NCBI GenBank assembly: GCA_964645535.1
Contig: CAZYCQ010000001.1
Coordinates: 60,245 to 124,244, forward strand
From: an uncultured archaeon
GTDB lineage: Archaea; Asgardarchaeota; Heimdallarchaeia; Heimdallarchaeales; Kariarchaeaceae
DNA length: 64,000 nt
Reading direction: 5' to 3'
A program made the position numbers and the translations under genes. This document shows, in pieces, positions 10,212 through 54,510 of this stretch; position 1 is the stretch's first letter; the number at the start of each line of letters is the position of its first letter. Below the pieces are notes generated by a model. It did not search any database, was not told the DNA's origin, and saw only the letters and a program-made list of their open reading frames with translations.

Positions 10212-10221
10212 AAAAATCCAC

Positions 10222-11181
10222 TCAAACAACTCGTGGAGCTGGAATACGATGGAAGATTTCCGTAAGGATCGTTCCAGCATTAACACCACTAATTATATCA
10301 CCTGATCTCAATATAATTCGGTGTCCCAACACAGGAATAAGGACATCTTGGATGTCTTGGGGATTGACAAAGTCACGACCGTTAAGCAATGCCCAAGCCT
10401 TTGAGGCTTGGATTAAACCCAAGCTTCCTCTAGGGCTGGCACCTACAGCAATTTGTCCATGATTTCGTGTCTTTTCAACAATGGTGACTGCATATTCGAT
10501 TATCGGATCACTGACATGAACTTCTTCCACCAATCTCTGTAATGCCAATACATCTTCTTTAGTAGCTACGGTATCAATATCAACTTCTTCTTTTTTCCTA
10601 TCCACTCGGTTTCTCACGATTTGCATTTCATCCTTCTTCGATGGATAACCAACACTTAATTTCATGAGAAACCTATCAAGTTGAGCTTCGGGAAGTGTGA
10701 AGGTTCCCTCATATTCCAAGGGGTTTTGGGTTGCCAAAACGATGAAGGGTGGATCCAATGAATAGGTGTTGCCATCTACAGTCACTGTTCTTTCCTGCAT
10801 GGATTCCAAAAGAGCAGATTGTGTTTTGGGGGTTGCACGGTTGATTTCATCCGCCAACAGTAGATTTGTAAAAACAGGACCTTGCCTGAATTCGAATTGG
10901 TTGGAAGACATGTTGAACATGGATATCCCTGAAATATCAGCAGGGAGAAGATCCGGAGTAAATTGGATTCTAGAGAAATCCAACCCAGTCGCTTGACCAA
11001 AGGTCCTGATCATGAGAGTTTTCCCCAAACCAGGTAGATCTTCAAATAGAATATGGCCGTTAGATAAAATCCCAGCCATAACGTATTTCAAAACCTCATC
11101 TTTTCCGATGATGGCTTTTTTGACCTCATTCAGTATTTGATTTATTTTTGTTGATGCTTGTTCAAAATTCATGATCATCAC
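10222..11181 (-). CDS. MoxR-family AAA+ ATPase.
   Basis: Walker A is GLGKT, Walker B is LLADEINRA, followed by the sensor region ATQNP. The 319-aa size is typical. Confidence 0.9.
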   Translation of the reverse strand: MMIMNFEQASTKINQILNEVKKAIIGKDEVLKYVMAGILSNGHILFEDLPGLGKTLMIRTFGQATGLDFSRIQFTPDLLPADISGISMFNMSSNQFEFRQGPVFTNLLLADEINRATPKTQSALLESMQERTVTVDGNTYSLDPPFIVLATQNPLEYEGTFTLPEAQLDRFLMKLSVGYPSKKDEMQIVRNRVDRKKEEVDIDTVATKEDVLALQRLVEEVHVSDPIIEYAVTIVEKTRNHGQIAVGASPRGSLGLIQASKAWALLNGRDFVNPQDIQDVLIPVLGHRIILRSGDIISGVNAGTILTEIFHRIPAPRVV

Positions 11182-11689
11182 CTATATTTGGATAAATATG
11201 CTTAAGTTTCTCTATTAATTTATAAAGCTCGACCTTTACTTTTTCCTCATCTACCTTACGGAAAAGGAAGGAGCTTGAGGATCCTACTGAGTTCATCCAA
11301 AGAGCGGGATTGAAAAAGAATAGACGAATATCTTTGTCAGGAATTATCTTTTTCATCTCTTCAGAAGAGCTTCGTATGGCAATAAATTCACTGTCAGACA
11401 TTCCCAGCATAGCAGCAAGGATTGAGGATAGTTCCCGTCTAATGAGAAATACGTAACCTTTGATCTCAGATGACCGCAACATATCAACCAATAGACCCAA
11501 TTCTTCCAACGGTCGCCCTCGTGGACTGGCATCTGTATTCAAAACTTGGTCATAAGGAAGCCATTCATCGGTCTCTTGGTTTTGAAGGTAACTCAAAATG
11601 AAAAATATCGAAAGGGCAATGGAAAATAGCCATAACCAACCTTGGTTGAATATCAAATCCAGAAAGGCAAGTAAATCCTCAGTTGCCAC
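11162..11689 (-). CDS. Hypothetical protein in the MoxR operon, possibly DUF4129-like.
   Basis: It sits between a membrane protein and moxR on the same strand. An N-terminal hydrophobic segment is present. Confidence 0.4.
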   Translation of the reverse strand: MATEDLLAFLDLIFNQGWLWLFSIALSIFFILSYLQNQETDEWLPYDQVLNTDASPRGRPLEELGLLVDMLRSSEIKGYVFLIRRELSSILAAMLGMSDSEFIAIRSSSEEMKKIIPDKDIRLFFFNPALWMNSVGSSSSFLFRKVDEEKVKVELYKLIEKLKHIYPNIGDDHEF

Positions 11690-12581
11690 TCAAAGGCACC
11701 TCCTTTTTCAGCAAAGACAAAACTTGATCAGCAGCTTCTCGTGCTTCTTCAACATGGCTTTCAGTTAATTCATGGGAAGAGAACCGAGCAAGTTCATACA
11801 GTTCAGTTAATATTGAGAAATAGTCAGACCCAGGAGAACCAAGCTCATCAACTAACTCCCATAAGAACCTTGAAGGAGTATACCATGTTGGAACTCTTCC
11901 AATTTTTCCCTCAATCCGGTAACAGGTTGATCGGTAGATCTCAATTATGTCTTTTTGGAGTTTACTGACTTTTGATTGGTATGGGTCTTCCTCAATGAGT
12001 TCAAGATCCGCCTTGTTCTTGACAATAACTGCAAAAAAGAGCAGGTATATGAAAAATATGGCCACAATTATAGTCACGAGAATATTGAACCACTCGGTTG
12101 CATTGACCAACCAACGAGGAGGAGCTTCAGTCACCGTAACCGTTCTGGTATAGGTGAAAAAAGACCCATCTGTCACGTTAGTAAATGTTTCTGTGACAAC
12201 AGAAATGTTGTCATCACTTACGGTTCGACTTGTGGGGAAACGGTTTTGGCTTTCGTCGAAAAGGAGAGAGGGACGATAGCTAGCCAAAAAAGCCAACACT
12301 ATGCCTGTGAGGACAATCGGCAAAAAGATTGCATCAAACCGATCAATTTTGAGACCCATTGATCTTAATGCGAAAATCAGGAAAAGGTACATTGCAATAC
12401 CGAAGGGAAGCAGGATCTCAACCGTTGGATTGCTCACCAACAGCTCGATCTTACCTTTGATAAGCAATTCCGAAAGGAGGATATAGAACCCTAAAAGGGA
12501 AGCCCCTCCTTTTGCAAGCATTCCACGGTTAAGATCGAGATCTGAAAAACTCATCTGACAATTGCTCATTCGTTTGGACAA
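11679..12581 (-). CDS. Membrane protein, first gene of the MoxR cluster.
   Basis: Several TM helices. Genes overlap tail-to-head with the next gene in the cluster. Confidence 0.45.
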   Translation of the reverse strand: MSKRMSNCQMSFSDLDLNRGMLAKGGASLLGFYILLSELLIKGKIELLVSNPTVEILLPFGIAMYLFLIFALRSMGLKIDRFDAIFLPIVLTGIVLAFLASYRPSLLFDESQNRFPTSRTVSDDNISVVTETFTNVTDGSFFTYTRTVTVTEAPPRWLVNATEWFNILVTIIVAIFFIYLLFFAVIVKNKADLELIEEDPYQSKVSKLQKDIIEIYRSTCYRIEGKIGRVPTWYTPSRFLWELVDELGSPGSDYFSILTELYELARFSSHELTESHVEEAREAADQVLSLLKKEVPLSGN

Positions 12582-14041: not shown

Positions 14042-15439
14042 ATGAAAAATACAGCCTCAGGGATGAACGAGAACTTTGACTATGATGTAATCGTGGTTGG
14101 TGGAGGTCCAGGTGGAGCTATTGCGGCATTCACCCTTGCAAAAGCAGGTTACAATGTTTGTATTTTGGATAAGAAAAAAAGAGAAAGAATCGGGGATAAA
14201 ACCTGTGGAGACGCCCTTGACAAGGCAACAGTGGATTTGTTGAAAAAGGAAATCGGAATTGATGAGCCTCAAGGGGATGAAGTTTCAGACATCATTAGCA
14301 AAATGAGCATTGCTGCTAACAATATTGAAACAAAAGCAACCTTGACAGCCCCAGGTTACGTTGTCGACAGATTGAATTACGGTCAGAGACTATTGAAGGA
14401 TTGTGAAGAAGCAGGAGTAACGGTTATATCACAGGCACCGGTTAGGGACATCATTATAGAAAATGAGTTTTTGAAAGGGGTAAAGTTCTATCATGAGGGA
14501 GAAACAAAGGAATTGAGAGCTAAATTCACAATCGATGCTTCCGGATCATATGCTGCAATAAGATCTAGGCTACCTGAAAGTATGAGGTTTGGAAACATAA
14601 TTGAAAAAGATTTGAAACCCTCTATGGTATGGCCAACATATAGGGAAATAATAGAACTCAATGAGGAGAAAACACCCCATCCTTGGTTAGGGGAAATAAT
14701 ACTCCTTTATGAGCGAGAAATTCCAATACCAGGGTACTTCTGGATTTTTTCAAAAGGACCAAACCGGCTCAATGTTGGTTTGGGTTGGCTCAAAACTGAG
14801 AAAAATCAACCACCACTGAAAAAGGCATTGAGAAAAGAATTAGAAAAGTACTACAAGGAAGAAGATTATCGGGTCATCCGATCAGGAGGAGGTCAGATCC
14901 CAATCAGACCTCCTTTTGACACTCTTGTTTTTGATGGAGGAGCTTTAGTTGGAGATGCAGGATGTTTGGTGCATCCAACTACAGCAGAAGGTCATGGTCC
15001 TGCCTTGGAAAGTGGTTTTTATTGCGCAAAAGCCATGATAAAGGCGCTTGAGAAAGAGGATTATTCACACAAAGCAATCTGGCAATATAATTTGGACATC
15101 ATGCATCATTTGGGAGAAAAACATGCTAACGCCCTTTTAATCAGGGAGTTTCTAGAAAAGGTCGGAGCTGATAGTCTGGAATTCCTTTTGAAAAAGAGGT
15201 TTCTTACCAATGATGATTTGGACAAACTAGTTAGAGGACAAGCCGTTCAGCTGTCATTGGGGGAGAAAATCAAAAGATTGTTGAGAATTTTTCCGATTTG
15301 GAGCCCTGTTTTTCACCTTGTTAAATTACTTAGAAAGTCTGAAGAGGTCAGAAAACATTATCTCGCATATCCAAAGGAGCCAGATCATTTGGAGGAATGG
15401 AGGAAGATGCGCAATTCAATTACAGGATGGGGCTTTTAG
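14042..15439 (+). CDS. FAD-dependent geranylgeranyl reductase family protein.
   Basis: Rossmann FAD motif DVIVVGGGPGGAIAAFTLAKAGYNVCILDKK, with GDAG further downstream. Confidence 0.75.
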   Translation: MKNTASGMNENFDYDVIVVGGGPGGAIAAFTLAKAGYNVCILDKKKRERIGDKTCGDALDKATVDLLKKEIGIDEPQGDEVSDIISKMSIAANNIETKATLTAPGYVVDRLNYGQRLLKDCEEAGVTVISQAPVRDIIIENEFLKGVKFYHEGETKELRAKFTIDASGSYAAIRSRLPESMRFGNIIEKDLKPSMVWPTYREIIELNEEKTPHPWLGEIILLYEREIPIPGYFWIFSKGPNRLNVGLGWLKTEKNQPPLKKALRKELEKYYKEEDYRVIRSGGGQIPIRPPFDTLVFDGGALVGDAGCLVHPTTAEGHGPALESGFYCAKAMIKALEKEDYSHKAIWQYNLDIMHHLGEKHANALLIREFLEKVGADSLEFLLKKRFLTNDDLDKLVRGQAVQLSLGEKIKRLLRIFPIWSPVFHLVKLLRKSEEVRKHYLAYPKEPDHLEEWRKMRNSITGWGF

Positions 15440-23109: not shown

Positions 23110-25407
23110 ATGATATTTCACAAGTTATTACTTTGCTACATAGAGTTTTTAATCGTCTTTTGGGACACTTGTCTTGTGGAATTTCCACCATACCAAAATG
23201 ATTTTGCATTTAGCCTTCCACATGAAAGGTTTCTTGGAAGTTGTAAAGTCAATGAAATAAACTATGACCTTTTATTAATGGAGATTCCAGTCCTAATTCT
23301 TTTTTTGAGCTTTTTCCAATTCATTTCTTTGCCTTTCAGAATATTTACTGCAACAATTGTTTTTCTGCTCACAACACCTTTTGTATTTAGAAAGTGGCAT
23401 TTTGAGTTGACAAACAAACGTTTGGTTGTTCGTAGATGGTTTGCTGGACTTGAAAGATTTCTTTCTTGGATATCCATTAAACTTTCAATGATTGAAACAC
23501 TGGAAACATCTCCGAGAATTAAAGCTGGACCGCTCCTACTAGGATATTGGATTCTCACATCTTATGCCTTGCCACTGATAGAGTTTGGGTTAAGTGGAGA
23601 AATCCCTCTCCCATTTGCCGTCAAGCTTGCTTTTTTTCTTGGATTGTATTCATCGACTGTTGAAGGGTATGAGGAAGATTTTACACACATATTCATTGAA
23701 CCGATTTTTGAAACCTTTGCCGATGTTTCCTTGATGGCAGGGACAGTCATGCTGATCATTGGTTTGTTTCTTTTCTTGGCAGGATTGCCATATAGAAAGG
23801 AGTTCAGATTGATAACTATTTCTGGACATAGTTTTTCTGTCCGTACGGGTCTTCCAAATGACTTTTTATTTCTCTTGGATGGAATTATGCGGAAACATCA
23901 CATACAGGGAGAATTTGAAAATGAAGTTCACTTTCCGAAACTTATTGATGAAGAACTGAAAGCCAAAGGCAGATTGGGTCTAATAGATAGAAAGAATCAG
24001 TTGATTGGATTACTTTCCCTCATTATGTTTGTTAGAGGGTTCGCAAATCTCTTAAGCAGGTTACAAAATGCTGATCAAAGAGATGTCATTTTTCTTTTTC
24101 TGAATCTAATTGATTTTCTTCTCATTCTATTTTTAATTGTTTTTGCCAAAAGATTTCAGAAGATATGGGCAACAAACCACAGAATAATTTTTCAGGACGA
24201 ACGAAGAGGAATATCTGGCCTATGGGGAAGAAGGATTTTCACATATCGTGATCTACCGTTTTCACAAATCCAAGGGTTCAAGGTTTCCTATTACTCCGGA
24301 TTTTCGCCTTACTCATTATATTTTGGAGTGGGAATCCTCTTGGCAATTCAAGCGATTGCCACATCACTTGCGGTTAAATTACCTTCCAGCCCACATTTTT
24401 TGATCTATTCAGTTGGGGTTATTATTGCCGGTCTGTATCTTCTATTGAATTTCCGGACATTTGGTGAGTTGACCCTATTTTCATTGGGTGGAAGAGTACA
24501 TCGCTTAAGATTCAGAACTCCCTATATTGTATCCAAATTGTCACATAGACTCGAAGGAAAAGAAGGATTGGCCGAAAAATTCTTTCCAAATCTTTTGAGT
24601 GATGCGGAAATTCAGAAAATATGCAATGTAATTAGAGGATACAATGAACCAAAAAGACCTTTGACAAAAAGGGAACATTATCTTGATGCATTTAGTTTTA
24701 TAGGTAAAGATGAAAAAATACTTTTCAGCGTCGAGAAAATAAAACCCCATCCATTTTATTGGCTTTTTGCGATCGTATTCATTCTATCTGGTGTTACAGT
24801 GATTTATGTCTTCATGGTTCTTTTTGAGAAATTTGATTTTCCCAGTGTGGTTGCATCAGGAATTCTGATTGCATCAACTTTATTTCTTCTTGTTCGAACT
24901 GTTGCATTTGCCATCATTAAAAGAAAATCCCTTATTCTAACTGAAGACCGATTAATTGACCAATCTGAAACAAATCCAACCAAGTTGGCCAAATGGCTGG
25001 GATATTTGCCAATATGGGAACTTCGAGAAGTCAGAAATGACTTTGTAACTTCAATAAGACAGCAAATATTGTTTCATAGGTTCAGGCCTAAAGGTATCTT
25101 TTCCTTAGTGCTAATCTCCCTCTTTTCGGTCAAGATTGTTGTTCTCCTTGATTATCCATATTCTTCTTTTGACAGGAATCCTGTTTTTATTGTCCTGATG
25201 CTTTCACCATTTTTGTTGATTTCTTCCATCAACCATTTCCTGTTGGCACTTATGGAAACCATTCCCCGTTATGGACTCAAAATAGAAACACGAAAATTTA
25301 CATTATCATACTCTCATTTCCCAAAATCAAAGCAGTTCGAACAGATTTTTTATCAAGCAGTAAGGAATCGAAACACCTACAATCAAATGATTAGGGAGGG
25401 ACTATGA
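23110..25407 (+). CDS. Large polytopic membrane protein with bacterial-PH (bPH_2/YdbT-like) domains.
   Basis: Segments such as WHFELTNKRLVVRRWFAGLERFLSWISIKLSMIETLE and HRIIFQDERRGISGLWGRRIFTYRDLPFSQIQGFKV fit the bPH_2 pattern next to TM hairpins. The start is uncertain, possibly Met at 23278. Confidence 0.5.
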   Translation: MIFHKLLLCYIEFLIVFWDTCLVEFPPYQNDFAFSLPHERFLGSCKVNEINYDLLLMEIPVLILFLSFFQFISLPFRIFTATIVFLLTTPFVFRKWHFELTNKRLVVRRWFAGLERFLSWISIKLSMIETLETSPRIKAGPLLLGYWILTSYALPLIEFGLSGEIPLPFAVKLAFFLGLYSSTVEGYEEDFTHIFIEPIFETFADVSLMAGTVMLIIGLFLFLAGLPYRKEFRLITISGHSFSVRTGLPNDFLFLLDGIMRKHHIQGEFENEVHFPKLIDEELKAKGRLGLIDRKNQLIGLLSLIMFVRGFANLLSRLQNADQRDVIFLFLNLIDFLLILFLIVFAKRFQKIWATNHRIIFQDERRGISGLWGRRIFTYRDLPFSQIQGFKVSYYSGFSPYSLYFGVGILLAIQAIATSLAVKLPSSPHFLIYSVGVIIAGLYLLLNFRTFGELTLFSLGGRVHRLRFRTPYIVSKLSHRLEGKEGLAEKFFPNLLSDAEIQKICNVIRGYNEPKRPLTKREHYLDAFSFIGKDEKILFSVEKIKPHPFYWLFAIVFILSGVTVIYVFMVLFEKFDFPSVVASGILIASTLFLLVRTVAFAIIKRKSLILTEDRLIDQSETNPTKLAKWLGYLPIWELREVRNDFVTSIRQQILFHRFRPKGIFSLVLISLFSVKIVVLLDYPYSSFDRNPVFIVLMLSPFLLISSINHFLLALMETIPRYGLKIETRKFTLSYSHFPKSKQFEQIFYQAVRNRNTYNQMIREGL

Positions 25408-26360
25408 TCATGAATTGGGATGCCAAGCTAAAAGTGGTAATTTTTGGGAAATACGATCTCAAGAGTATTTTTGAAAAGCATAGAATTCCTGGAGAAAGGC
25501 TAATCGCAGAACAAGACATCCTATATTATTCTGAAATTCCCCTGTTCCTTGCTTTAATTATAGGGATTGTATCTCTTTTCCTCTCTTTGTTGCTGGATCC
25601 CATTTTTCTTGTTGGAATACCAATAATAATTCTAATTACGTATTTTTCCATTTCAATGGAGTTTGTGTTTCTCACCGACGAAAGGATTCTTATTGAGAGA
25701 AGGTATCTGCTGGATAAAATACTATCAACCCGGACAATAATAAACATTGCATTGGATCAGATCTCTATTGTAGAGTCAGGAAGAGCGCCTCCTAATTGGC
25801 CAGTTTCATTTGTCACTATGGGAACCCTCCTTTTATCTGTCTTTTCAGCCATGATTACTTCCAATGTTTTTACCAAGTTAATATGGGGATATGTAGGATT
25901 AATTTCAACATTCATCTTGATTTATTCGTTACGACTATTCAGACGAGCAGTTTCATTATTTGTTGTTGGAAGTAGACTTCCTATTGTAATTGGTGCAAGA
26001 AAAGGGATATCTGTGTATTGGGTGAAGAAACTTCATGAAACATTGTTTGAACGAATTCACCACGTAGAACATATTTATTCATCTCACAAGGAACTTGACA
26101 CCAAAATCAATGAATTCCCGTTGGAACTTCCCCAAAATCTCAAGAAAGTATTGGTCAATCTTTCACAAAATGTGGAAAAAGAGATATACAAACTACTTTA
26201 TTTCGAGCCCCGAACAAAGAAAGAATTGTACTCTGAATTAGAAGATTTCGACAATCATCTAATTGATAATGGCCTATCCCATCTCTCCAAGGAAGGGATG
26301 ATTGTATATGACCGGAGCAGAAGAGTCTGGACAATTACTGGAAAGGTCCCAAATTCATAG
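25404..26360 (+). CDS. Membrane protein with a bPH_2-like domain and a C-terminal winged-helix-like region. Its start overlaps the stop of the preceding gene (ATGA), suggesting translational coupling.
   Basis: LTDERILIERRYLLDKILSTRTIINIALDQISIVE fits the bPH pattern. The C-terminus is KKELYSELEDFDNHLIDNGLSHLSKEGMIVYD. Confidence 0.5.
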   Translation: MIMNWDAKLKVVIFGKYDLKSIFEKHRIPGERLIAEQDILYYSEIPLFLALIIGIVSLFLSLLLDPIFLVGIPIIILITYFSISMEFVFLTDERILIERRYLLDKILSTRTIINIALDQISIVESGRAPPNWPVSFVTMGTLLLSVFSAMITSNVFTKLIWGYVGLISTFILIYSLRLFRRAVSLFVVGSRLPIVIGARKGISVYWVKKLHETLFERIHHVEHIYSSHKELDTKINEFPLELPQNLKKVLVNLSQNVEKEIYKLLYFEPRTKKELYSELEDFDNHLIDNGLSHLSKEGMIVYDRSRRVWTITGKVPNS

Positions 26361-36752: not shown

Positions 36753-39700
36753 TTAAACTTTGATTTTACCCTCTTCCTTAACGTAATACACAGGCGGTTT
36801 AGCACGAATCCGACATTCTTCAAGAAATTCAAGTAAAGCCGGGTCTTTTTCTTGACGTTTTTGTGAACGTTCAATGGCTTTGCGAACCCGATCAGCAATT
36901 CGATGCCGTGGAATTGCTTCAGCAATTAATGTCATAGTCTCGTATGCATCCCGTCGGATTGAGGCGGATGAATGGTTAGCACCTTTCAAGGCCACCGTGA
37001 CCATTTTGTTGAGCCCTTTCTCGATATTGCCAGGGATGGATTTCATTTTTGAAACTCGTTCCATTGTTTGCTTGAGAACTTGTTTTGCTACGTTTCTTGT
37101 AGCCATTTCTTCATCTGTCACAAGATTGGGAAGCAGGATCAAAGCCTCATCAACTAGAGTAAGATCCCGTTCTACGAGATTTCCAAGCAATAGAGCACCA
37201 GTCTGTCTGTTTCTGATATTTTTTGATTTGACCAGCTTTTTGCTTACGCCTAGGAACTCTTTTGCCAAATCTTTTTTCCGTTCAAGTAATAATTCCACTG
37301 CATCCAAAGCTGTTTCGGAAACACGACCATCAGCGTCTTTCAACGCCATGGTCATTCTTCGTATCAACTCATTTTGGAAAGCATGGGAATGAAGGCCGAT
37401 TCTAAATGAGGCATGATAGGCAGAATTCCTGACATTCCAGTCCTGTGAATTGGTATAGGGATTCAATAAATCTAGGATCTCTTGAGCTAGCGTATTGTTC
37501 CTAATTCCAATTTCACCAAGAATTTTTAGGCATTTTTCAAGGATTTCACCGGAAGAGGAATTAAGTATGTCAGAAACCAATCGGTAAATGGGACGAGCCA
37601 TTTCAGAATGCATTGAGGTCAATTGGAAGAGTAAGTCAAGAGTGGCGGATTTAACCTGTTCGTTTTGATTTTCGACCAAATTTTCTGCTATGAAAAACAG
37701 GTCTTCAGCCAATACGTTTTGGTTATCTGCAAGATAGGTTAAGGCACGAATAATATGCAGTATTACCTCAACATCTTTGTTTTTCTTAAGTACGAGGGAG
37801 AGTAAATTAAAGCACTCCATGTCAAATCGATCTTCCTTTTTCACGATTTCAGCAATCAATTCCACAGTTGCAATCAATTGATCACGTGATTGCATCAATT
37901 CATCAAAGGATGATTTTATGAGATTGAATATCTGGTCTGATTCAACAGTATCGTTTCGAATTGAAAATCTCAATCCTTTTAAAGCATATAGCCGGATATC
38001 CTTATCCTCAGATGAAAAAATGCTGAGAAGGTGCTGGGTGATCGTTTCAATTGTATTGCTTTGAAATGATGCCATATTGGAAAGGATTTTTGCAGAATTT
38101 CGTCGAGTCGTCAAATCCGGATTTTCAAGTTCATTGACCACTAAACCCAGAAGTTCCTCTGTCAAGGAAGGTCTTGCCCTTAAAATTTGCCGCAATGCCT
38201 CAATTATCTGTTCATCCTGTTCTTGTGTGGTATCTTCTTGATGAAGTTGAGTGATAAGTGAGGAAATCAAGAGAGAACCGATTTCATGGCTTTTTCTTGA
38301 TATTTGATGGATAAAATTGAGAACCTGTTCCTGTATCCCGCCAGTTCGTCTTGTAACTGTCCGGATGACCAAGGCAATTATTGCCCCCCTTAGTGACGGA
38401 ACATCATCAATTAATACTTGTAAGGTTCTATTAGCTTCCCAAGAAACAGAAACATCGGGATCGTACAGTTTGCTAATGATAAGAAGAAGCATTTCCATAA
38501 TTCGGTCATCAGAAAAGAGTTTGGCATAGTATTTGAGAGCCCTAGTGGCAAAAATTTTGACACCAACCGATTCATCTTCCAAAGCATTGAGAAGCATCAT
38601 ATAGTAATCCTCATCCGGTTGATCTAGGTTGACAATAATTGAAAGCAAGGCTTTTGATGCCGCCACCCGAACTGGTTCCTTTGGGGAATTCAAGGTTTCA
38701 TGTAGGATCTCCTTGAAAAGGTTATGAGATTCGTTGTCTTCGGAGACTTGCTCTCTTGCCAAGTCAAGGAGAGCAACCAATGCCTTTTCAGAATGAATCT
38801 TATGGTAGAACTCTACCCAACCCGAAATATCTTCGTAATATTCAGGGATTTGCCATACAAGCCTCCTTTCAACAGACCCGGGAGGGTTAAGGATCACGAT
38901 CGTTGAGGAAACAAGAAGGATGAAGTTTTGCAGGATCAGAAAAAGAAGAACCAATCTAGGATGGCGATTTACACCAAAAGCGCCTAAAACATTGATATTT
39001 TGAATTTCAGGGGATAGGCTGGCGTATACTTCGAGAATGCTCGCCAATACCACACCCATCAACACAAAAACAGGAAGGAATAGGCTCAAGGTGGAAATTT
39101 TGAAGCCACTTTCATTCCATACCGCGAGCATTTCCTTTAATGCACCACGTCCCTTGTTTAAAATTGAAAGGGTAAAGATTGCACCAACACTAAAAGAAGC
39201 CACAGCAGTTCCTTTTTGGGAAATGGTGACAATATCCAAGACATTTTCTATAACAAAAAAGAGAGTTGTCAACAACGCTTGAATTGCGAAAAGAACAAGC
39301 AATGCCCGCCCCAATTCAACTTCTGGAATCAGCCGGAATGACCCGTCAGGATCCCTGAATTTGAGTTTTGGCCACCCCAATCTGAAAAAATCTTTCCAAA
39401 AACGTCCTTTTCGAACAAGTTTCAGTGTGAGCAAATCTTCACCAAGTCCGGAACCAGCCAATGCCCCAAGGTTAGCCATAGGCAGAACAAGAGCCCACAA
39501 AAGGATTGCGGTTATGAAAGACGTGTGCAAAAATTGAATCAAAAGAAAAATAGGTAAAATGTAAAGGCCAAGATAAGCAACCAATGTGGCGAGAATTCGT
39601 GATTTTAATTTCTGTGCAAGATCTTCCATTAGTTCCTCAATAATGAATTCAGCAGGAATTGCAGATTCCTCACCCATTTCAGAAAGGCTGTAAAATTCAA

Positions 39701-40076
39701 AAAACGGGAAAATCAAAAGAAAAGCAACGGTAATAAGTATCAGGAAACGAGACAATAGAGTACTTTCTGCATCATTCAGGATTTCTATTGAGACGACAAA
39801 CAGGGTGACAAATCCCAATGCCACCAAGAGAGAGAAAAGGTAAAGCGCAATCAATCGAGAAAAAGGAAGATCCCCGACATCTGTTACTCCTGCTGTATTT
39901 TTTACTTCATCAGCAGCAAATGAATAAGAACCCAAGGTAATTAGGACAAATAAGATTGAAGCCACTCCGGAAACGACCAATGGATCCAAAAATTGCGGAT
40001 CTTGGGTAATGGTAAAAAGAAGATAATAGATAAGAACAATCATTAAACTAAGAAAAAGGGAAATACGAGGTTTCAC
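36753..40076 (-). CDS. Giant (1107 aa) membrane-anchored HEAT/ARM-repeat protein.
   Basis: The N-terminal ~400 aa carry more than 10 TM helices. The C-terminal ~700 aa carry repeated HEAT-like units, for example VRVAASKALLSI, VGVKIFATRALKYY, VRNSAYHASFRIG and IRRDAYETMTLIA. Confidence 0.6.
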   Translation of the reverse strand: MKPRISLFLSLMIVLIYYLLFTITQDPQFLDPLVVSGVASILFVLITLGSYSFAADEVKNTAGVTDVGDLPFSRLIALYLFSLLVALGFVTLFVVSIEILNDAESTLLSRFLILITVAFLLIFPFFEFYSLSEMGEESAIPAEFIIEELMEDLAQKLKSRILATLVAYLGLYILPIFLLIQFLHTSFITAILLWALVLPMANLGALAGSGLGEDLLTLKLVRKGRFWKDFFRLGWPKLKFRDPDGSFRLIPEVELGRALLVLFAIQALLTTLFFVIENVLDIVTISQKGTAVASFSVGAIFTLSILNKGRGALKEMLAVWNESGFKISTLSLFLPVFVLMGVVLASILEVYASLSPEIQNINVLGAFGVNRHPRLVLLFLILQNFILLVSSTIVILNPPGSVERRLVWQIPEYYEDISGWVEFYHKIHSEKALVALLDLAREQVSEDNESHNLFKEILHETLNSPKEPVRVAASKALLSIIVNLDQPDEDYYMMLLNALEDESVGVKIFATRALKYYAKLFSDDRIMEMLLLIISKLYDPDVSVSWEANRTLQVLIDDVPSLRGAIIALVIRTVTRRTGGIQEQVLNFIHQISRKSHEIGSLLISSLITQLHQEDTTQEQDEQIIEALRQILRARPSLTEELLGLVVNELENPDLTTRRNSAKILSNMASFQSNTIETITQHLLSIFSSEDKDIRLYALKGLRFSIRNDTVESDQIFNLIKSSFDELMQSRDQLIATVELIAEIVKKEDRFDMECFNLLSLVLKKNKDVEVILHIIRALTYLADNQNVLAEDLFFIAENLVENQNEQVKSATLDLLFQLTSMHSEMARPIYRLVSDILNSSSGEILEKCLKILGEIGIRNNTLAQEILDLLNPYTNSQDWNVRNSAYHASFRIGLHSHAFQNELIRRMTMALKDADGRVSETALDAVELLLERKKDLAKEFLGVSKKLVKSKNIRNRQTGALLLGNLVERDLTLVDEALILLPNLVTDEEMATRNVAKQVLKQTMERVSKMKSIPGNIEKGLNKMVTVALKGANHSSASIRRDAYETMTLIAEAIPRHRIADRVRKAIERSQKRQEKDPALLEFLEECRIRAKPPVYYVKEEGKIKV

Positions 40077-47633: not shown

Positions 47634-47965
47634 TGACTGTGAAAATTGATAAACGGAGATACCTCTTGGTGAGATTTCTAGGTAAAAAGCCAAAGAGAGA
47701 AGAGTTTGACAAGGAAATAAGAAAAATTGTACGGTATTTCTACGGTGAACTTACACTGATTTGGAGCAACTTACACATTGTGGATGAATGGAATGACTTC
47801 TTCATCATTCGAACCAATCACAGGTATGTTGATCAAATAGAAGCCGCAATAACCATTATGTGGTCTGAAGATTTTATTGCAGATATAATTTGTAAATCGG
47901 GAACTATAAAAGGACTCAAACGTAGATTCAAAAATTTATTTGAGACGGCGTCCGTGAGCTCGTAG
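47633..47965 (+). CDS. rnp2: RNase P protein component 2 (Pop5/Rnp2).
   Basis: N-terminal KRRYLLVRF (R.RYL motif). 110 aa. The start overlaps the rpp30 stop (TAATGA). Confidence 0.7.
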   Translation: MTVKIDKRRYLLVRFLGKKPKREEFDKEIRKIVRYFYGELTLIWSNLHIVDEWNDFFIIRTNHRYVDQIEAAITIMWSEDFIADIICKSGTIKGLKRRFKNLFETASVSS

Positions 47966-48523
47966 ACTTGGTCTTGCTTTTTCAACACCACGACCTTTGC
48001 GGAACAGACCCCTTGATTTCTTCCCGGCAGCAGTAAGGCCTCGGTAAGTACGACCCTTGTGAACCTTCCGGTTGATCCAAGCAATTCTTTTGTCATTGAC
48101 AATTGCAGGATGAACTGGATCCACCATGATAATTTCGAACCATTTGGATCGACCATCTTGGCCTACCCAATAGGAGCCCAAAACTTCAAGATTAGGATAT
48201 TTTCTTTGAGTTCTTGTTTCTGCGATCCATCTAAGGTTCCTTCCACTTGTTTTGTCAATTGCAAGGTTTACACCTCTGCTTCTCCCTCTATTTGGACGGG
48301 ACATCCGTCGGGAACCCCTTCTCACCTTCGTCCTTACCACAACATACCCCGGTTTAGCCTTATAACCCAAGGCACGAGCACGATCAATTCTTAATGGACG
48401 TTCAACGCGTACAATCGTGTTTTGTCGTCTCCATTCAATCAGGCGTGGTTTTTGGATTGCCTTGAATTCTGGTGTATTTCTTTTTCTCCAAAACATTCTG
48501 ACATTTTTGTACAGATTAGTCAT
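47936..48523 (-). CDS. rpl15e: 50S ribosomal protein L15e.
   Basis: WRRQNTIVRVERPLRIDRARALGYKAKPGYVVVRTKVRRG is the characteristic L15e core. Confidence 0.9.
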   Translation of the reverse strand: MTNLYKNVRMFWRKRNTPEFKAIQKPRLIEWRRQNTIVRVERPLRIDRARALGYKAKPGYVVVRTKVRRGSRRMSRPNRGRSRGVNLAIDKTSGRNLRWIAETRTQRKYPNLEVLGSYWVGQDGRSKWFEIIMVDPVHPAIVNDKRIAWINRKVHKGRTYRGLTAAGKKSRGLFRKGRGVEKARPSLRAHGRRLK

Positions 48524-48611: not shown

Positions 48612-50345
48612 TCAATAACTGTTGGTTCGGAATTCAGGAATCTTAAGTTGAGGGATTTTTGTCAGATCAATTTCAAAAGCGGAAATCGGAACAATTATTC
48701 CATTATGTTCCAAGATTTCAATTTTCAGCTCTCCAATGATTCCAACTGGATTTCCGTTCACCAAAACTGAAGCAGACCTTCCAGGAATAAGGTAATTGCT
48801 TTCAGTTTCCACCAAGTCATATTCTATTCCTGTTAACCTGAAGACTGCATCAAGTACCCTATGGGCAGTTTCAAAAGTTTCATCGGACCCCGCCAAGACA
48901 ACGGCAGCCTTTGTAAGGGTGACAACATCTTCACCATCTCTGATAGCCACTTCACCTGTTTCAAACACGTGGTGAGGAAATGGAACTTCAGAATTCCTCT
49001 TTACAAAACGGATCAGGCCAGGAAGAAGATCGGGACGAAGGTATTCAAAGGTTGAGGTAACAGGATTTGTTAGACGGATGACATGCTTTCGCAGAAAATC
49101 ATCATCCCTCAACACAGCATCGGTAATGGTTGCTCGATCAGTTAAATTGTAGTTCATCACTTCCTGCAATCCACAGCCTACCAAAATTTCTCGGACAAGG
49201 TTTTCCTTTTGGGTGGAAACATGGAGCCCGCCTACTGTAAAGAGGTTGGCTGTTGATGGACCTATTTTATTGTAATCTGCTGCAATTGCAACCTCTTCAG
49301 AAATATCCACCCAATGCATGATGTCATGTCGCCAAGGGCCATACAAAACAACCAACTTGTCTTTGTTGGAACCGTTCCTGACATCATGACGTCTTTTCTT
49401 AATCAATTTCTTGATTTGTGTTTTGGTAAAACTAGTTCCCAAGTACTTGTTGATTTCCTTCACATCAACCTCGATTTCACCAGGGTCTTGAGGGGGATAA
49501 ATCATTTCGGTAAAATCGTAACCTTCAGGATAGTGAACCTTGACTTGACCCACTTCAGCACCTCGATCTGCAAGGTTTTGAGCCAGAAGGGAAATGACAA
49601 CCTTGACAGCTTCATGGTTGGTACCAGTGACCTCGACGAGGATATCAGTGGTTTCTTCAGTCACTCTTCCCACATCATTCGAGTTGATGATTGGAGGAAG
49701 AGAGAGAACTCCACCTTCTGCATCTACTAAAATTGGGACTTCATCAAAACCTGAAATGATGTGCCCATATTCAATTCCTTTAGGATGTTTTTCCAGGATT
49801 TCCTCTATTGTCATCTCGGTTTCAAAACCCAGAGGAACAAATTTGAATGATTTAGGAACGGTTTTGTATTGGATGGGAGAGGTGATCATGTTGAGGTTAT
49901 AGATGCCGATGGAAGTTCTTTTCCTTCTTCTTCCAAAGGAGAAGTCCACCTTATCTTGAACCTGTATCAGTTGCTTGATCAGGAAATCATTCAGCTTAAG
50001 TCCTTTAGCAACAACTGCCGCAACATATGGACGAATTGACTGAACACCTTTACTGACTTCAATGGAATACCCGGAGTCAGGGAATTTTAACTTTGGGAGT
50101 CCAGGTTTATCTAGCAGTCCACGAATTTCACGTGCCAATCCTTCAGCACTCCAAAGATCTGGACGGCTTGCAGTTTTGATGTCTATGGATATCTTGGTAT
50201 GTCCGTTCTCATCTGGACCTTCAGGGTCTGAATCCACCTCTGCCTTTGCAAATGATACAAGGTCATCAAGTTCGGATGGAGACAGTGCCTGCTTCAGACC
50301 GAGAAGTCTTGAAAAATCTTCAATTGAGATATCGATTGTAACCAT
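48612..50345 (-). CDS. pheT: Phenylalanine-tRNA ligase beta subunit (archaeal type).
   Basis: About 577 aa with B3/B4 and B5 domains and a catalytic-like core. Its start lies 2 nt from the stop of pheS on the same strand. Confidence 0.85.
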   Translation of the reverse strand: MVTIDISIEDFSRLLGLKQALSPSELDDLVSFAKAEVDSDPEGPDENGHTKISIDIKTASRPDLWSAEGLAREIRGLLDKPGLPKLKFPDSGYSIEVSKGVQSIRPYVAAVVAKGLKLNDFLIKQLIQVQDKVDFSFGRRRKRTSIGIYNLNMITSPIQYKTVPKSFKFVPLGFETEMTIEEILEKHPKGIEYGHIISGFDEVPILVDAEGGVLSLPPIINSNDVGRVTEETTDILVEVTGTNHEAVKVVISLLAQNLADRGAEVGQVKVHYPEGYDFTEMIYPPQDPGEIEVDVKEINKYLGTSFTKTQIKKLIKKRRHDVRNGSNKDKLVVLYGPWRHDIMHWVDISEEVAIAADYNKIGPSTANLFTVGGLHVSTQKENLVREILVGCGLQEVMNYNLTDRATITDAVLRDDDFLRKHVIRLTNPVTSTFEYLRPDLLPGLIRFVKRNSEVPFPHHVFETGEVAIRDGEDVVTLTKAAVVLAGSDETFETAHRVLDAVFRLTGIEYDLVETESNYLIPGRSASVLVNGNPVGIIGELKIEILEHNGIIVPISAFEIDLTKIPQLKIPEFRTNSY

Positions 50346-50346
50346 T

Positions 50347-51846
50347 TCATTCCACCTCTATTCCAGAGCTGACTTCTACATTCCGAAGCCAATTCAAGTC
50401 TTGCGAAAGTAATTCCCTGATGTCATTGATTTGGTTTTTGACCATGAACAACCTGTCAATTCCTAAACCCCACGCAATAACAGGATAATCGACCCCATAA
50501 GGTCTAACTACTTCCGGACGGAAAATTCCAGCTCCACCGAACTCGATTCTTCCCAATACAGGATGTTTTGCGCTCAATTCAACCGAAGGGGAGGTGAAGG
50601 GATAATAATCCGGACGGAAATTCACTTCTGTGGCACCCGCGATGTCCTCTGCAAAAACCTTCAGAATGCCGAGCAGATCCCGGAAGGTGATTGTAGGATC
50701 GCAAACAATACCCTCCACCTGATAGAATTCCACGCCATGTGTTGCGTCTATGTCATCTGGACGGAAACATTTGGCAATTGAAAAGTATTTTTCCGGAGGA
50801 TTGACTTTTCTTAAGGTTCGTGCAGAAATTGCGGTTCCTTGAGGTCGCAAAAGTAAACGTGCAGCCTTTTTTGGATCCCATCTGTATTTGTAACCTCTCG
50901 AACCGGTAATCCAACCATCTTCATGTGTTTGTTTTACATTGTCCACAAATGCCTCATTAGGAAGGTTACCATGTGTAGGGGAATCGATTAGGAAGATATC
51001 CGAATCTTCACGGGCCGGATGGTCTTGAGGGGCAAAAAGAGAATCAAAATTCCAGAATTCCTGTTCAATGAGTGGCCCTTTCATCTCCTTGAAACCCAAG
51101 GCAATCAGTTTTTCCCTTAGGTGATCGTGGAAATGACGGTATGGATGGTATTTTCCTGGAAAAAGGGTTCGGGGTTTGCTTTTGATATTATAGGGTTTGA
51201 ATTTTACCTTTTTCCATTTTCCGCTAATAATCATTTGAGGTGTGATCTGACTTACTTCCTCCTCCACTATTATCTCATATCTGTCAACAGGGACTGCGTT
51301 GACCTCCACAATATTGCGGATCTGTCTTTCCACAAGACCTCGTGAATGAAGGGTTTGAGCAATGGCTGGATCAACCTCTTTACCCTCTGCCACAAGTGAA
51401 AGTCCTGTCTGTAAATCATTTGAGACATCATCCACGAATGTTCCATCAGTTAGGGAAACCGTACCTTTTTCGATTTTAATCAGACCTGACTTTTTCAAAA
51501 CGCCAATCCCTGCAGATAGATCGGGTTTGGAAAGTCCCAATGTTTTCCCAGCATCGGACATATGGAATGAACCAACCTTGGCTAAATGATTTGCAATTCT
51601 TCTTTCCACGAGACCCTGTTCCAAAGCCTCTCTCCCCCTGTCTGTCAGGGACAATGTTTCTTTTTCAATGACTTGCTTTTCTACGAGACCTTCTTTTGCG
51701 AGAAGCTCGACAAGAGAACTGACTTTACCCAATTCAAACCCAGTCTTCTCCGATAGCTGGTTCAGATTTGAGGTTCTTAGATTGAGAACCTCATCAAGTA
51801 CTCGGGCTGCGTCAGGGGTTAATTTTACGCGCTGTTTTGACATCAT
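50347..51846 (-). CDS. pheS: Phenylalanine-tRNA ligase alpha subunit (archaeal/eukaryotic type).
   Basis: Class II aaRS motifs: FRPDYYPFTSPSVE and GLGIDRLFMV. Confidence 0.85.
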   Translation of the reverse strand: MMSKQRVKLTPDAARVLDEVLNLRTSNLNQLSEKTGFELGKVSSLVELLAKEGLVEKQVIEKETLSLTDRGREALEQGLVERRIANHLAKVGSFHMSDAGKTLGLSKPDLSAGIGVLKKSGLIKIEKGTVSLTDGTFVDDVSNDLQTGLSLVAEGKEVDPAIAQTLHSRGLVERQIRNIVEVNAVPVDRYEIIVEEEVSQITPQMIISGKWKKVKFKPYNIKSKPRTLFPGKYHPYRHFHDHLREKLIALGFKEMKGPLIEQEFWNFDSLFAPQDHPAREDSDIFLIDSPTHGNLPNEAFVDNVKQTHEDGWITGSRGYKYRWDPKKAARLLLRPQGTAISARTLRKVNPPEKYFSIAKCFRPDDIDATHGVEFYQVEGIVCDPTITFRDLLGILKVFAEDIAGATEVNFRPDYYPFTSPSVELSAKHPVLGRIEFGGAGIFRPEVVRPYGVDYPVIAWGLGIDRLFMVKNQINDIRELLSQDLNWLRNVEVSSGIEVE

Positions 51847-51968
51847 GTTTCACTCCAGTATTTGTACTCTGACTCAATTTCGGTTGCTTGCGAATCTTTC
51901 TTTGATCGGATTTTATCTCAAAATAAATTCCAAGGCACCTAACCTCTTAATTGAATTTTTCTGAGTTG

Positions 51969-52568
51969 TTACTTAAACTTTTGTGCTTTTTCTCTCTTTG
52001 TTTGCTGATTATGTTTTTCGATGAAATATTCGATCATGTGGTTAAAGGCTTTTTCAATATTTTCTCCTGTTTTAGCGGAGGTGTAATAAAATTTTATTGG
52101 ATTCCCTGTCCGCAGGGAAAGTGCTTCAACTTTTTTCTCGATTTCTTCCTCTGAGACTGCCGCTTGTTTCTCACCATTTTGGATAAGATCCACCTTGTTC
52201 CCCAAAACGATGATGGGAACTTTCATTTCATGGCTATAACTGATTTCATTGAGGAATTCTTCAAGAAAACCATCAAGATCATCAAAGGATTTGCGGTCAG
52301 TAATATCAAAAACAATGAAAGCTCCATCTGATGCGCTGTAATATAATTTTCGTACATGATGAAAGGTTTCTTGACCGGCTATGTCCCATATCTGGAGAAT
52401 AAATTCACCCAAAGGATGGTCGATACGTTTAACCGCAAAGTCAGCGCCAATAGTTAGGGAGTAATTATGTTGAAATTGTTCACCGAAGTAATTTCTTCTG
52501 ATACTGGTCTTGCCAACCCGTTTCCTTCCTATGAGAATTACCTTGAATTGTTTTGGAATGTTCAACAC
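51969..52568 (-). CDS. Rab-like small GTPase (Ras superfamily).
   Basis: G1 GRKRVGKTS; switch I TIGADF (RabF1 IGVDF); G3 ILQIWDIAGQE (RabF2 KLQIWDTAGQE); YYSASDGAFIVFDITDRKSF (Rab YYRGA.G...V.D.T...SF); G4 GNKVDL; G5 YTSAKTGENI. No C-terminal Cys prenylation motif. Confidence 0.8.
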   Translation of the reverse strand: MLNIPKQFKVILIGRKRVGKTSIRRNYFGEQFQHNYSLTIGADFAVKRIDHPLGEFILQIWDIAGQETFHHVRKLYYSASDGAFIVFDITDRKSFDDLDGFLEEFLNEISYSHEMKVPIIVLGNKVDLIQNGEKQAAVSEEEIEKKVEALSLRTGNPIKFYYTSAKTGENIEKAFNHMIEYFIEKHNQQTKREKAQKFK

Positions 52569-52992
52569 GGATTACTTGCTTTTTAAGTAAATAAGTATTC
52601 TCGTTTTTCAAGATGTTTGACGAGGGATTTAGACTTGAAACAAAAGCATCAGTTTTTTATTCATGTTGGAGGAACAGATTATTTTATTCTGCACAACAAA
52701 ACTGTTTCAATTGGTTGACTCGACATTTCAGGGATGCAAGGGCTTACTAGATTTGATGAATCTTAATTATAGCCTATTCTTGTTTTTCGCTTTGCCAATC
52801 ATTTATCAAAAAGTCCATTCATGGCCAATTTCGCAAACCAAGCTTAATATTCTAGTGATTGATTCAATATTTGCCGGTGAGGAGCGGGAGAATCTTCGGA
52901 TTCGATGAGCAATTAATCGGGGAAACTTGAGGGTTTGCTCCTCCCGGTTTAATTTAGCAAAAGGTTAAATTAATTATTTCCAATGCGATTTC

Positions 52993-53838: not shown

Positions 53839-54510
53839 ATGGGGTTTTATTTTTTTTATAAGAAAATATTTATTTTAAAATTTCCAAATCTATTTATGAC
53901 TGGAGAAGTAATTGCAGGATTTCAAAAAGAAATTTTCTTTGGGGTACTGGCAGGGATAATTGCTTGTATATTGTTTTTGTTCCTTCATCAGTTTACGATT
54001 GTTGACATTTGGTTCTCTTCTCCATTCATGCTGATTATTTCTGCATTGGTGGGATTTGGGCTTACTAAGGCCTATTTTGCCTTGTTTGAAACATACAGGT
54101 TTATTACATGGTTTGGATTCATTACCTATTTTGTCCTAAGTTTAGGATTCATTTCATTATTATCGATGATAATTTTTACTCCCGCCATATCAAGCGAGGA
54201 TCTCTTAAGTACAAATGCAGGACCACCCAATTCATTAATTTTTAAAGGCCTTCCGCTTATAATTGGTTGGTTTTTGATTTCTACTTTGATATTAGTCTAT
54301 TCAGTAACTCGAAGCTTTCAGCAATATCTATTCGTAGTTGCAGCCACATTTCTTCTTTTCTTGACACTTGGACTCAATTTTGCCCTGTTAGGGTTTGTAG
54401 ATGTCGCACCAAGGCATCAATTCCTAGTACAGAAATTTTTTGCGCTTAATGCATTTCTGGGATATACATTTCTTTTCGCTTTTGATTTGCTGGAACGTTT
54501 TGTGAAATGA
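53839..54510 (+). CDS. Membrane protein with six TM helices.
   Basis: Hydrophobic throughout. Confidence 0.4.
   Translation: MGFYFFYKKIFILKFPNLFMTGEVIAGFQKEIFFGVLAGIIACILFLFLHQFTIVDIWFSSPFMLIISALVGFGLTKAYFALFETYRFITWFGFITYFVLSLGFISLLSMIIFTPAISSEDLLSTNAGPPNSLIFKGLPLIIGWFLISTLILVYSVTRSFQQYLFVVAATFLLFLTLGLNFALLGFVDVAPRHQFLVQKFFALNAFLGYTFLFAFDLLERFVK

Follow-up and report, generated by a model that had tools for sequence, protein, structure and literature searches.

A single-domain Rab-like small GTPase encoded beside pheST in a heimdallarchaeial genome

Small GTPases of Asgard archaea

Small GTPases make up as much as 2% of the genes of Asgard archaea (PMC10307638). In the genome of the cultured MKD1, the largest small-GTPase class is composed of single-domain Rab-like proteins (PMC10933270). 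These proteins bear on the origin of the switches that control eukaryotic membrane trafficking. The gene described here encodes a Rab-like GTPase. It lies on the minus strand at positions 51969..52565 of a 64-kb stretch of archaeal DNA, and that whole stretch of 64,000 nucleotides is called the window below. The protein is very probably a functional, nucleotide-dependent molecular switch with a single domain that belongs to the Asgard Rab-like class and is encoded in a heimdallarchaeial genome, a reading that draws on sequence comparison and a structural model.

A Thorarchaeota Rab has been studied by structure determination (7EZB) and an activity assay (Tran et al. 2024, PMC10933270). Rab and Ras are its nearest structural matches (PMC10933270) and also those of the model of the protein described here. 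No lipidation route has been reported for archaeal Rab-likes (PMC4915359, PMC10933270), and in the literature, too, their deep phylogeny relative to the eukaryotic Rabs lacks resolution (Surkont & Pereira-Leal 2016, PMC4915359). Like these archaeal proteins (PMC4915359; 7EZB, PMC10933270), the GTPase has a single G domain of ~180-200 amino acids (aa), keeps the Rab family motifs RabF1 and RabF2, lacks a C-terminal Cys, and ends in a short C-terminus. The existence of the class, its Rab-like motifs, its missing lipid anchor, and its unresolved phylogeny are already published, and the gene is one further example. New, though of modest weight, are a small heimdallarchaeial subfamily with a P-loop Arg specific to it and linkage to pheST, the contrast in conserved neighbours between Rab-like subfamilies, and the misleading taxonomic label of the source genome.

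Gene, start codon, and G-box motifs

The open reading frame (ORF) at 51969..52568 on the minus strand encodes 199 aa from a GTG codon in the ORF list. It is a real gene whose match is far beyond chance, because Pfam Ras (PF00071) matches with E=2.5e-40 (138.2 bits, cut-off 21.6) and orthologues with 48-82% identity are found in five other lineages. Pfam places Ras ahead of Roc, Arf (4.4e-19, 69 bits), and Gtr1_RagA (2.2e-14), and the TIGR00231 small_GTP model matches at 74.7 bits against a cut-off of 42.5. An identical protein in GenBank, RMG25559.1, is called as 199 aa from the GTG at 52568. By codon conservation, the most likely start is the TTG at 52565, giving 198 aa, because this TTG opens all orthologues at the matching codon and the GTG does not, being CTG in the closest relative in the alignment. 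The predicted isoelectric point is 7.9. The features of the gene are as follows.

51969..52565, minus strand: Rab-like GTPase coding sequence, 198 aa with the most likely start, stop TAA at 51969-51971 (ORF list, Pfam Ras, conserved TTG, AlphaFold2 pLDDT 89.3)
52506..52529, minus strand: G1/P-loop GRKRVGKT, residues 14-21, with Lys at the Ras-G12 position and a clade-invariant Arg at the Ras-G13 position (alignments)
52437..52463, minus strand: switch I, G2 Thr39, and RabF1, YSLTIGADF, residues 36-44; the T39, G41, A42, D43, and F44 columns are invariant
52368..52400, minus strand: RabF2, G3, and the first part of switch II, ILQIWDIAGQE, residues 57-67, with the catalytic Gln66 (alignments)
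52188..52199, minus strand: G4 NKVD, residues 124-127, guanine specificity (alignments)
52071..52079, minus strand: G5 SAK, residues 164-166 (alignments)
51972..52022, minus strand: end of the long C-terminal helix and basic tail (IEKHNQQTKREKAQKFK), without Cys (alignment, AlphaFold2 model)

An earlier note, made from the DNA letters alone, had claimed that all five G-boxes are present, and the alignment to the references bears this out: G1 GRKRVGKT, G2 T39, G3 WDIAGQE (residues 61-67), G4 NKVD, and G5 SAK occur in order. The strings that it quoted, TIGADF, ILQIWDIAGQE, and YYSASDGAFIVFDITDRKSF, are each found in the protein. The residues for GTP binding and hydrolysis are complete, namely Lys20/Thr21, Thr39, Asp62, Gly65, and Gln66 (the DxxGQ motif), NKVD, and SAK. 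The protein would cycle between GTP and GDP and would signal to partners through switch I/II and the RabF1/F2 surface.

Relationship to Rab and other small GTPase families

By sequence and by predicted fold, the protein is a Ras-superfamily GTPase whose nearest eukaryotic relatives are the Rabs. The references for this comparison were 19 Ras-superfamily proteins (9 Rabs and 10 non-Rabs), each sequence confirmed by exact look-up in a collection of 15 billion proteins. In phmmer, the nine Rabs score 68.6-98.7 bits, led by Rab7A (98.7) and Ypt7 (97.5). The non-Rabs score lower: RalA 61.8, Ran 59.8, HRas 53.0, the Rho family 41-47, Arf1 26.6, and Sar1 18.0 bits, so that every one of the 9 Rabs outranks every one of the 10 non-Rabs. 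MglA gives no phmmer match to the GTPase. Among the best 60 matches of a PDB sequence search, nearly all are Rab/Ypt by name, with Rab7 first at 3e-27; the others are entries related to Rab and, at 2.6e-26, the Thorarchaeota Rab 7EZB. Identity is 37.5% to Rab7A over 168 aa and 30-39% to the Rabs overall. Asgard relatives named "Rab family GTPase" (Heimdall, Hod, Thor, and Odin) are 40-46% identical.

The Rab family motifs were scored at 33 positions against the Rab consensus (IGVDF, KLQIWDTAGQE, RFRSIT, YYRGA, and LVYDIT, following the criteria of Pereira-Leal & Seabra). The GTPase scores 20/33. By comparison, eukaryotic Rabs reach 24-31 and the remaining Asgard Rab-likes 16-23, with Ran at 16, Ras at 14-16, Rho at 8-10, and Arf/Sar/MglA at 6-11 (MglA 7/33). 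RabF1 (IGADF, identical to Rab7), RabF2 (ILQIWDIAGQE), and RabF5 (IVFDIT) are kept, and RabF3 (TFHHVR against RFRSIT) and RabF4 (YYSAS against YYRGA) have diverged. The Rab segments had been described beforehand as unusually well conserved, a description that does not hold, since 20/33 sits inside the Asgard Rab-like range of 16-23/33 and is average for the class.

A neighbor-joining tree was built from a MAFFT L-INS-i alignment of 176 columns with Kimura distances and 200 bootstraps. The orthogroup of the GTPase is recovered at 100%. Eukaryotic Rab, Ras, Rho, and Ran nest within the Asgard Rab-like radiation, where the deep nodes are all below 30%, and the grouping of the orthogroup with the Asgard proteins and Rab has 15% support. 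Arf, Sar, and MglA are split from all others at 92%, among references that contain no Rup, Asgard Arf-like, or Rag-like proteins.

This split bears on the possibility that the Rab-like reading is mistaken and that the protein is of the MglA/Rup or Arf/Rag-like kind, or comes from eukaryotic contamination of the assembly. Such an origin is extremely unlikely. It could be suspected because Pfam also reports Arf (4.4e-19) and Gtr1_RagA (2.2e-14), and because four of the top database matches end in -GCC and are eukaryotic Rabs. However, the Ras model scores 138 bits, twice the 69 bits of Arf, and the placement with MglA or Arf that would have contradicted the Rab-like assignment was not seen in the tree, where Rup was not among the references. 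The G3 motif is WDIAGQE in the GTPase, compared to WDVGGQD in Arf1 and TVPGQ in MglA. Moreover, the 199-aa protein has no roadblock C-terminal domain, and the genes around it are those of an archaeon (archaeal-type PheRS, L15e, RNase P Rpp14/p30, and TFB) and syntenic across six lineages of metagenome-assembled genomes (MAGs). The -GCC proteins group with the eukaryotic references and not with the clade of the GTPase. These proteins (P0026, P0030, P0031, and P0041, on Logan contigs of ~1 kb) resemble eukaryotic Rab32-type proteins and have an odd P-loop, GDVYTGKT. A link to eukaryotic Rab32-like proteins through a shared NKVDLxxNGEE loop was considered and rejected, as the tree puts them with the eukaryotic references. 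Myxococcus MglA resembles the GTPase as a small Ras-like GTPase of a prokaryote. It differs in its MglB/roadblock GTPase-activating protein (GAP), in the absence of a phmmer match, and in G3 (TVPGQ in place of DIAGQ); by Pfam, no roadblock gene was detected in the 64-kb window.

Predicted structure and the C-terminus

The AlphaFold2 model, built from 120 homologues, has a pLDDT of 89.3 and a pTM of 0.86 and is poor only at switch I residues 33-38. The predicted fold is a six-stranded beta-sheet and five-helix G domain of the Rab/Ras type. In Foldseek against the PDB, the top matches are Rab8a, Rab6, Rab3, and Rab1, with some KRas, MRas, and Rap. Matches to Rab/Ras chains have TM scores of 0.80-0.88 (normalised to the target) and E-values down to 1e-16. 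The last G-domain helix of the model extends to the C-terminus, and the 199 aa hold no hypervariable tail and no extra domain. As had been noted from the sequence, there is no C-terminal prenylation cysteine; the protein has zero Cys anywhere. It ends in ...KREKAQKFK. This basic tail occurs in this species and its nearest relative and is absent in the other clade members. Sequence comparison therefore points to no conserved membrane-targeting device in the clade, because the basic C-terminal stretch is restricted to the two closest lineages. Without a lipid anchor, localisation would occur through protein partners or, in this species, through the basic C-terminal helix.

A true eukaryotic Rab, such as a Rab7 orthologue, would be prenylated, cycle on and off membranes with GDI/REP, and mark a membrane compartment. 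The likeness to Rab7/Ypt7 is considerable. Together with Rab8, Rab1, and Rab2, they are the best eukaryotic sequence matches (98.7/97.5 bits for Rab7A/Ypt7), the G boxes and fold agree, RabF1 is identical to that of Rab7, RabF2 and RabF5 are close, and the fold is nearest to Rab8, Rab6, and Rab1. Unlike Rab7/Ypt7, the GTPase has no CxC/CC sites and no hypervariable domain, RabF3/F4 have diverged, and Lys and Arg replace the Ser-Gly of GDSGVGK. The missing prenylation site already contradicts a true Rab. The GTPase is also nested among Asgard paralogues, which are more similar to it (40-46% identity) than the Rabs are (30-39%), and its grouping with the Asgard proteins and Rab has the 15% support given above. 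The literature likewise offers neither a resolved phylogeny nor a lipidation route (PMC4915359, PMC10933270). A true Rab is very improbable on this evidence.

The protein belongs to the Asgard Rab-like class and is not a true eukaryotic Rab, because it has no prenylation Cys and no hypervariable tail, RabF3/F4 have diverged, and its grouping with the eukaryotic Rabs has low support in the tree. It is encoded in an Asgard genome, has a single domain, keeps RabF1/F2, has no Cys and a short C-terminus, and has Asgard Rab-likes as its nearest relatives. The initial description of the gene as Rab-family stands in part: the protein is Rab-like by score and fold, but the absent prenylation Cys and hypervariable tail, the diverged RabF3/F4, and the deep tree nodes below 30% do not carry it into the Rab family itself.

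The orthologous clade and its P-loop arginine

Database relatives of the GTPase are 81%, 75%, 73%, and 56% identical, and all others are at or below 46%. The public call of the 56% relative (protein P0005; L012 5899-6468) is truncated at the N-terminus to 155 aa and lacks the P-loop. The full ORF at this locus has a TTG start, contains GDRRVGKT, and is 60% identical to the GTPase. A further member is found in the Heimdall MAG BWSM_123 (L021). It is 48% identical, is a reciprocal best hit, and joins the clade at 98% bootstrap. The orthogroup and these two proteins form a clade (98% bootstrap) of six lineages, including that of the GTPase itself. The TTG start codon is used by all clade members. 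In 1.84 billion representative proteins, there is a single cluster with more than 47% identity to the GTPase, though 17,634 proteins match at E<=1e-10, and a metagenome scan returned no further relatives above 47% identity. From these searches, the clade is small and rare.

Every clade member has an Arg at the third variable residue of the P-loop (GRKRVGKT, GAQRVGKT, GSKRVGKT, GDRRVGKT, and GDARVGKT). The Ras-G12 position is Lys/Gln/Arg/Ala, and the Ras-G13 position is the invariant Arg, Arg17 in the GTPase. Among the fetched loci, GxxRVGKT is found at 15/15 pheST-linked loci and in 3 of ~200 other Asgard Rab-like matches. The usual Asgard P-loop is GDGAVGKT, which is present in 60/120 homologues. 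The clade is thus unlike other Asgard Rab-likes in having G[RASD][KQRA]RVGKT and not GDGAVGKT, and the GTPase also has a longer alpha3-beta5 loop and an insert after NKxDL.

GBP1 Arg48 and atlastin Arg77 are internal arginine fingers at the P-loop position equivalent to Arg17 (reviewed in PMC5084822). What they share is an Arg as third variable residue in GxxxxGK[ST], a likeness of sequence position only. GBP1 and atlastin are dynamin-superfamily proteins, large and activated by dimerisation, and are not specifically related to the GTPase. By analogy to them, Arg17 might, speculatively, act as an arginine finger in cis that stimulates hydrolysis, and such a finger would be consistent with the lack of a roadblock/longin regulator next to the gene.

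Several points weigh against a functional switch of the Asgard Rab-like class. Bulky residues at Ras-G12/G13, the positions of Lys16 and Arg17 here, impair GAP-stimulated hydrolysis in Ras. By this analogy, the protein could be hydrolysis-deficient instead of self-activating. No partner or effector of the GTPase was identified. The tree that separates it from Arf/Sar/MglA is distance-based and without the Rup, Asgard Arf-like, and Rag-like references. Finally, the co-occurrence of the Arg with pheST linkage is seen in six lineages only and may be plain shared ancestry.

The first of these points leads to the view that the protein is a pseudo-switch, deficient in hydrolysis, constitutively GTP-bound or fast-exchanging, and regulated by its abundance in the manner of Rnd/RhoH or oncogenic Ras G12/G13 mutants. 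The residues at the Ras-G12 and Ras-G13 positions are consistent with this, the conserved weak TTG start would fit control at the level of expression, and no GAP-like partner is encoded nearby. Yet the catalytic Gln66 and Thr39 are invariant. The G12 position of eukaryotic Rabs is occupied by Ser, Thr, or Gln, and many active GTPases have a side chain at G13, namely Ala in Rho/Rac and Arf1, Asn in Sar1, and the catalytic Arg in GBP1 (PMC5084822). A pseudo-switch is unlikely, and a functional GTPase that cycles between GTP and GDP is the preferred reading.

Linkage to pheST

The GTPase gene is on the same strand as pheS and pheT and ends 122 nt upstream of pheS, in keeping with the earlier placement of the gene upstream of pheST.

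50347-51846, minus strand: pheS, the conserved downstream neighbour of the GTPase gene
48612-50345, minus strand: pheT, conserved downstream neighbour, after pheS
47936-48523: L15e, after pheT

The gene order GTPase-pheS-pheT-L15e is found in five lineages. In BWSM_123, the order is pheS-pheT-GTPase-valS (L021 656-7097, JASBSB010000003.1), all on one strand with gaps of ~80-120 nt, and the valS assignment comes from NCBIfam NF009687 at 819 bits. Adjacency to pheST is therefore present in all six lineages of the clade, with the GTPase upstream in five and downstream in one. The upstream flank of the GTPase changes among lineages and is an SDR gene (in either orientation), a hydrolase gene, or a PIN-MazE pair. 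At L012 5072-5685, the pair, a PIN gene with a MazE antitoxin gene, is inserted just upstream of the GTPase, which indicates a variable upstream flank beside a GTPase-pheS junction that persists. In the Heimdall lineages that come next in similarity (PheS 55-59% identity), pheST has no GTPase gene beside it. Rab-like homologues with 41-43% identity are located elsewhere and not at pheST.

Another Heimdall Rab-like subfamily (41-43% identical, P-loop GDGAVGKT) has a Robl_LC7 gene ~1.6 kb away in 26 fetched loci. These are L014 (6001-6570, 8198-8707), L022, L024, L026-L032, L034-L037, L039, L041, and L048, together with L111, L112, L114, L115, and L117-L121. Unlike this roadblock-linked subfamily, the clade of the GTPase is linked to pheST. 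Rab-like subfamilies of Heimdallarchaeia thus differ in their conserved neighbours, a roadblock gene in one case and a synthetase operon in the other. In the window, Pfam and NCBIfam searches of ~50 ORFs across the 64 kb detected no Robl_LC7, longin, TRAPP, TBC, or DENN domain and no second small-GTPase domain. The earlier note's statement that no Roadblock/longin gene is adjacent thus extends, by Pfam, to the whole 64 kb. Two unannotated flanking ORFs (81 aa, 52663-52908; 223 aa, 53839-54510) were considered as partners and rejected because they are not conserved at the orthologous loci.

The conserved adjacency raises the question of a switch that cooperates with PheRS (and ValRS), for instance through sensing of the charging status or regulation of the synthetase. 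The adjacency in all six lineages and in two different arrangements speaks for such coupling, as does the pheS junction that stays in place while the upstream neighbours (SDR, hydrolase, PIN-MazE) change. On the other side, pheS has its own conserved upstream element that is also present without the GTPase upstream (see below), and in related Heimdall lineages (PheS identity 55-59%) pheST stands without a GTPase. The linkage spans six lineages only and a shallow phylogenetic depth, with no fusion and no co-occurrence outside the clade. To our knowledge, coupling of PheRS to a small GTPase has no precedent, which also counts against it. Coupling to the synthetase is accordingly doubtful.

A stronger form would combine both clade-specific features. 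The clade would then be a distinct kind of Asgard Rab-like that has its own P-loop arginine finger, uses no external GAP, and works with PheRS/ValRS. By sequence and analogy, this combination has little likelihood. In eukaryotes, a reported link between LeuRS and the Rag/Gtr proteins couples a synthetase to small GTPases, to which a PheRS-coupled switch would be a loose parallel. If the combination were true, the clade would be an archaeal counterpart of this synthetase-to-small-GTPase signalling.

Transcription units and the element upstream of pheS

Two short elements flank the GTPase gene.

52587..52595, minus strand: TATA-like box CTTATTTAC, rich in A/T and 22-30 nt before the TTG start, proposed from sequence
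51924..51947, minus strand: conserved element AGAGGTTAGGTGCCTTGGAATTTA, in the gap from the GTPase stop to pheS, with one match in the window and 0 expected by chance

A box similar to CTTATTTAC stands at equal distance from the start in the orthologues. The position of the box 22-30 nt before the TTG, and its match in the orthologues, suggests that the GTPase gene is served by a promoter of its own and that its leader is short or absent. The GTPase would be transcribed from this promoter into a short-leader mRNA and translated from the weak TTG start, and the separate conserved element would drive pheST.

The element AGAGGTTAGGTGCCTTGGAATTTA is 24 nt long, lies in the 122-nt gap between GTPase and pheS, and is identical in all five lineages with the GTPase upstream. 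It occurs at L003 ~10618-10641, L006 ~2706-2729, and L012 ~6543-6566 and is also found upstream of pheS in L017, L018, L019, and L021. A 13-nt core within it, TGCCTTGGAATTT, precedes pheS without variation at nine Heimdall loci, of which 4/9 have no GTPase upstream of pheS. The core is kept across Heimdall lineages whose PheS is only ~55% identical. From its distribution, the element belongs to pheS and not to the GTPase, because the core is also found where no GTPase precedes pheS. The element ends in a TATA-like TTTAYWTT located 72-100 nt before the pheS ATG, and GGAG precedes the ATG. It is probably the pheS promoter (TFB recognition element, BRE, and TATA) with a putative regulator site, acting at the level of DNA. 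An RNA leader or riboswitch was considered and rejected, as Rfam gave no match and folding showed neither a conserved structure nor covariation (-1.97 kcal/mol). The gene had been called monocistronic. This is likely, as the promoter-like elements before both the GTPase and pheS support separate transcription units.

Host lineage and database label

The GenBank MAG that carries RMG25559.1 (GCA_003696825.1, contig RFHV01000941.1) is labelled "Euryarchaeota / Methanobacteriota archaeon". The nearest named relatives of the neighbouring PheS are Candidatus Heimdallarchaeota (57%) and Kariarchaeaceae (54-56%), followed by Heimdallarchaeaceae, Hodarchaeales, and Thorarchaeota. A syntenic sister MAG, WAKA01 (GCA_015523565.1), is labelled Candidatus Heimdallarchaeota and has 71% identity in PheS, 74% in PheT, and 93% in L15e. 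It carries additional Rab-like paralogues on other contigs. By these sequence comparisons, the host is an Asgard archaeon of Heimdallarchaeia and the GenBank label is coarse or wrong, because PheS, PheT, and L15e agree in similarity and synteny with the Heimdallarchaeota-labelled MAGs and Kariarchaeaceae. The Euryarchaeota/Methanobacteriota label could mislead surveys of the distribution of Rab-like GTPases.

Other genes in the window

Five ORFs in the window have no Pfam or NCBIfam match.

23110-25407, plus strand: 765 aa
25404-26360, plus strand: 318 aa
27553-28734, plus strand: 393 aa
32098-33024, minus strand: 308 aa
21201-22133, minus strand: 310 aa

The ORFs at 23110-25407 and 25404-26360 overlap by 4 nt in an operon-like arrangement. 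A 1096-aa protein with a hydrophobic N-terminus and weak HEAT/armadillo-type repeats (HEAT_2, Cnd1, INTS7_N) is encoded at 36753-40043 on the minus strand, and a 115-aa ORF and a methyltransferase gene come after it. The minus strand encodes an Alg9-like mannosyltransferase (PF03901, 6e-33) at 4468-6231 and, nearby at 8257-12569, a MoxR AAA_3 ATPase/DUF58/DUF4129 cluster. The ORF at 14042-15439 is FAD-dependent geranylgeranyl-reductase-like, a fold class discussed by Surkont & Pereira-Leal.

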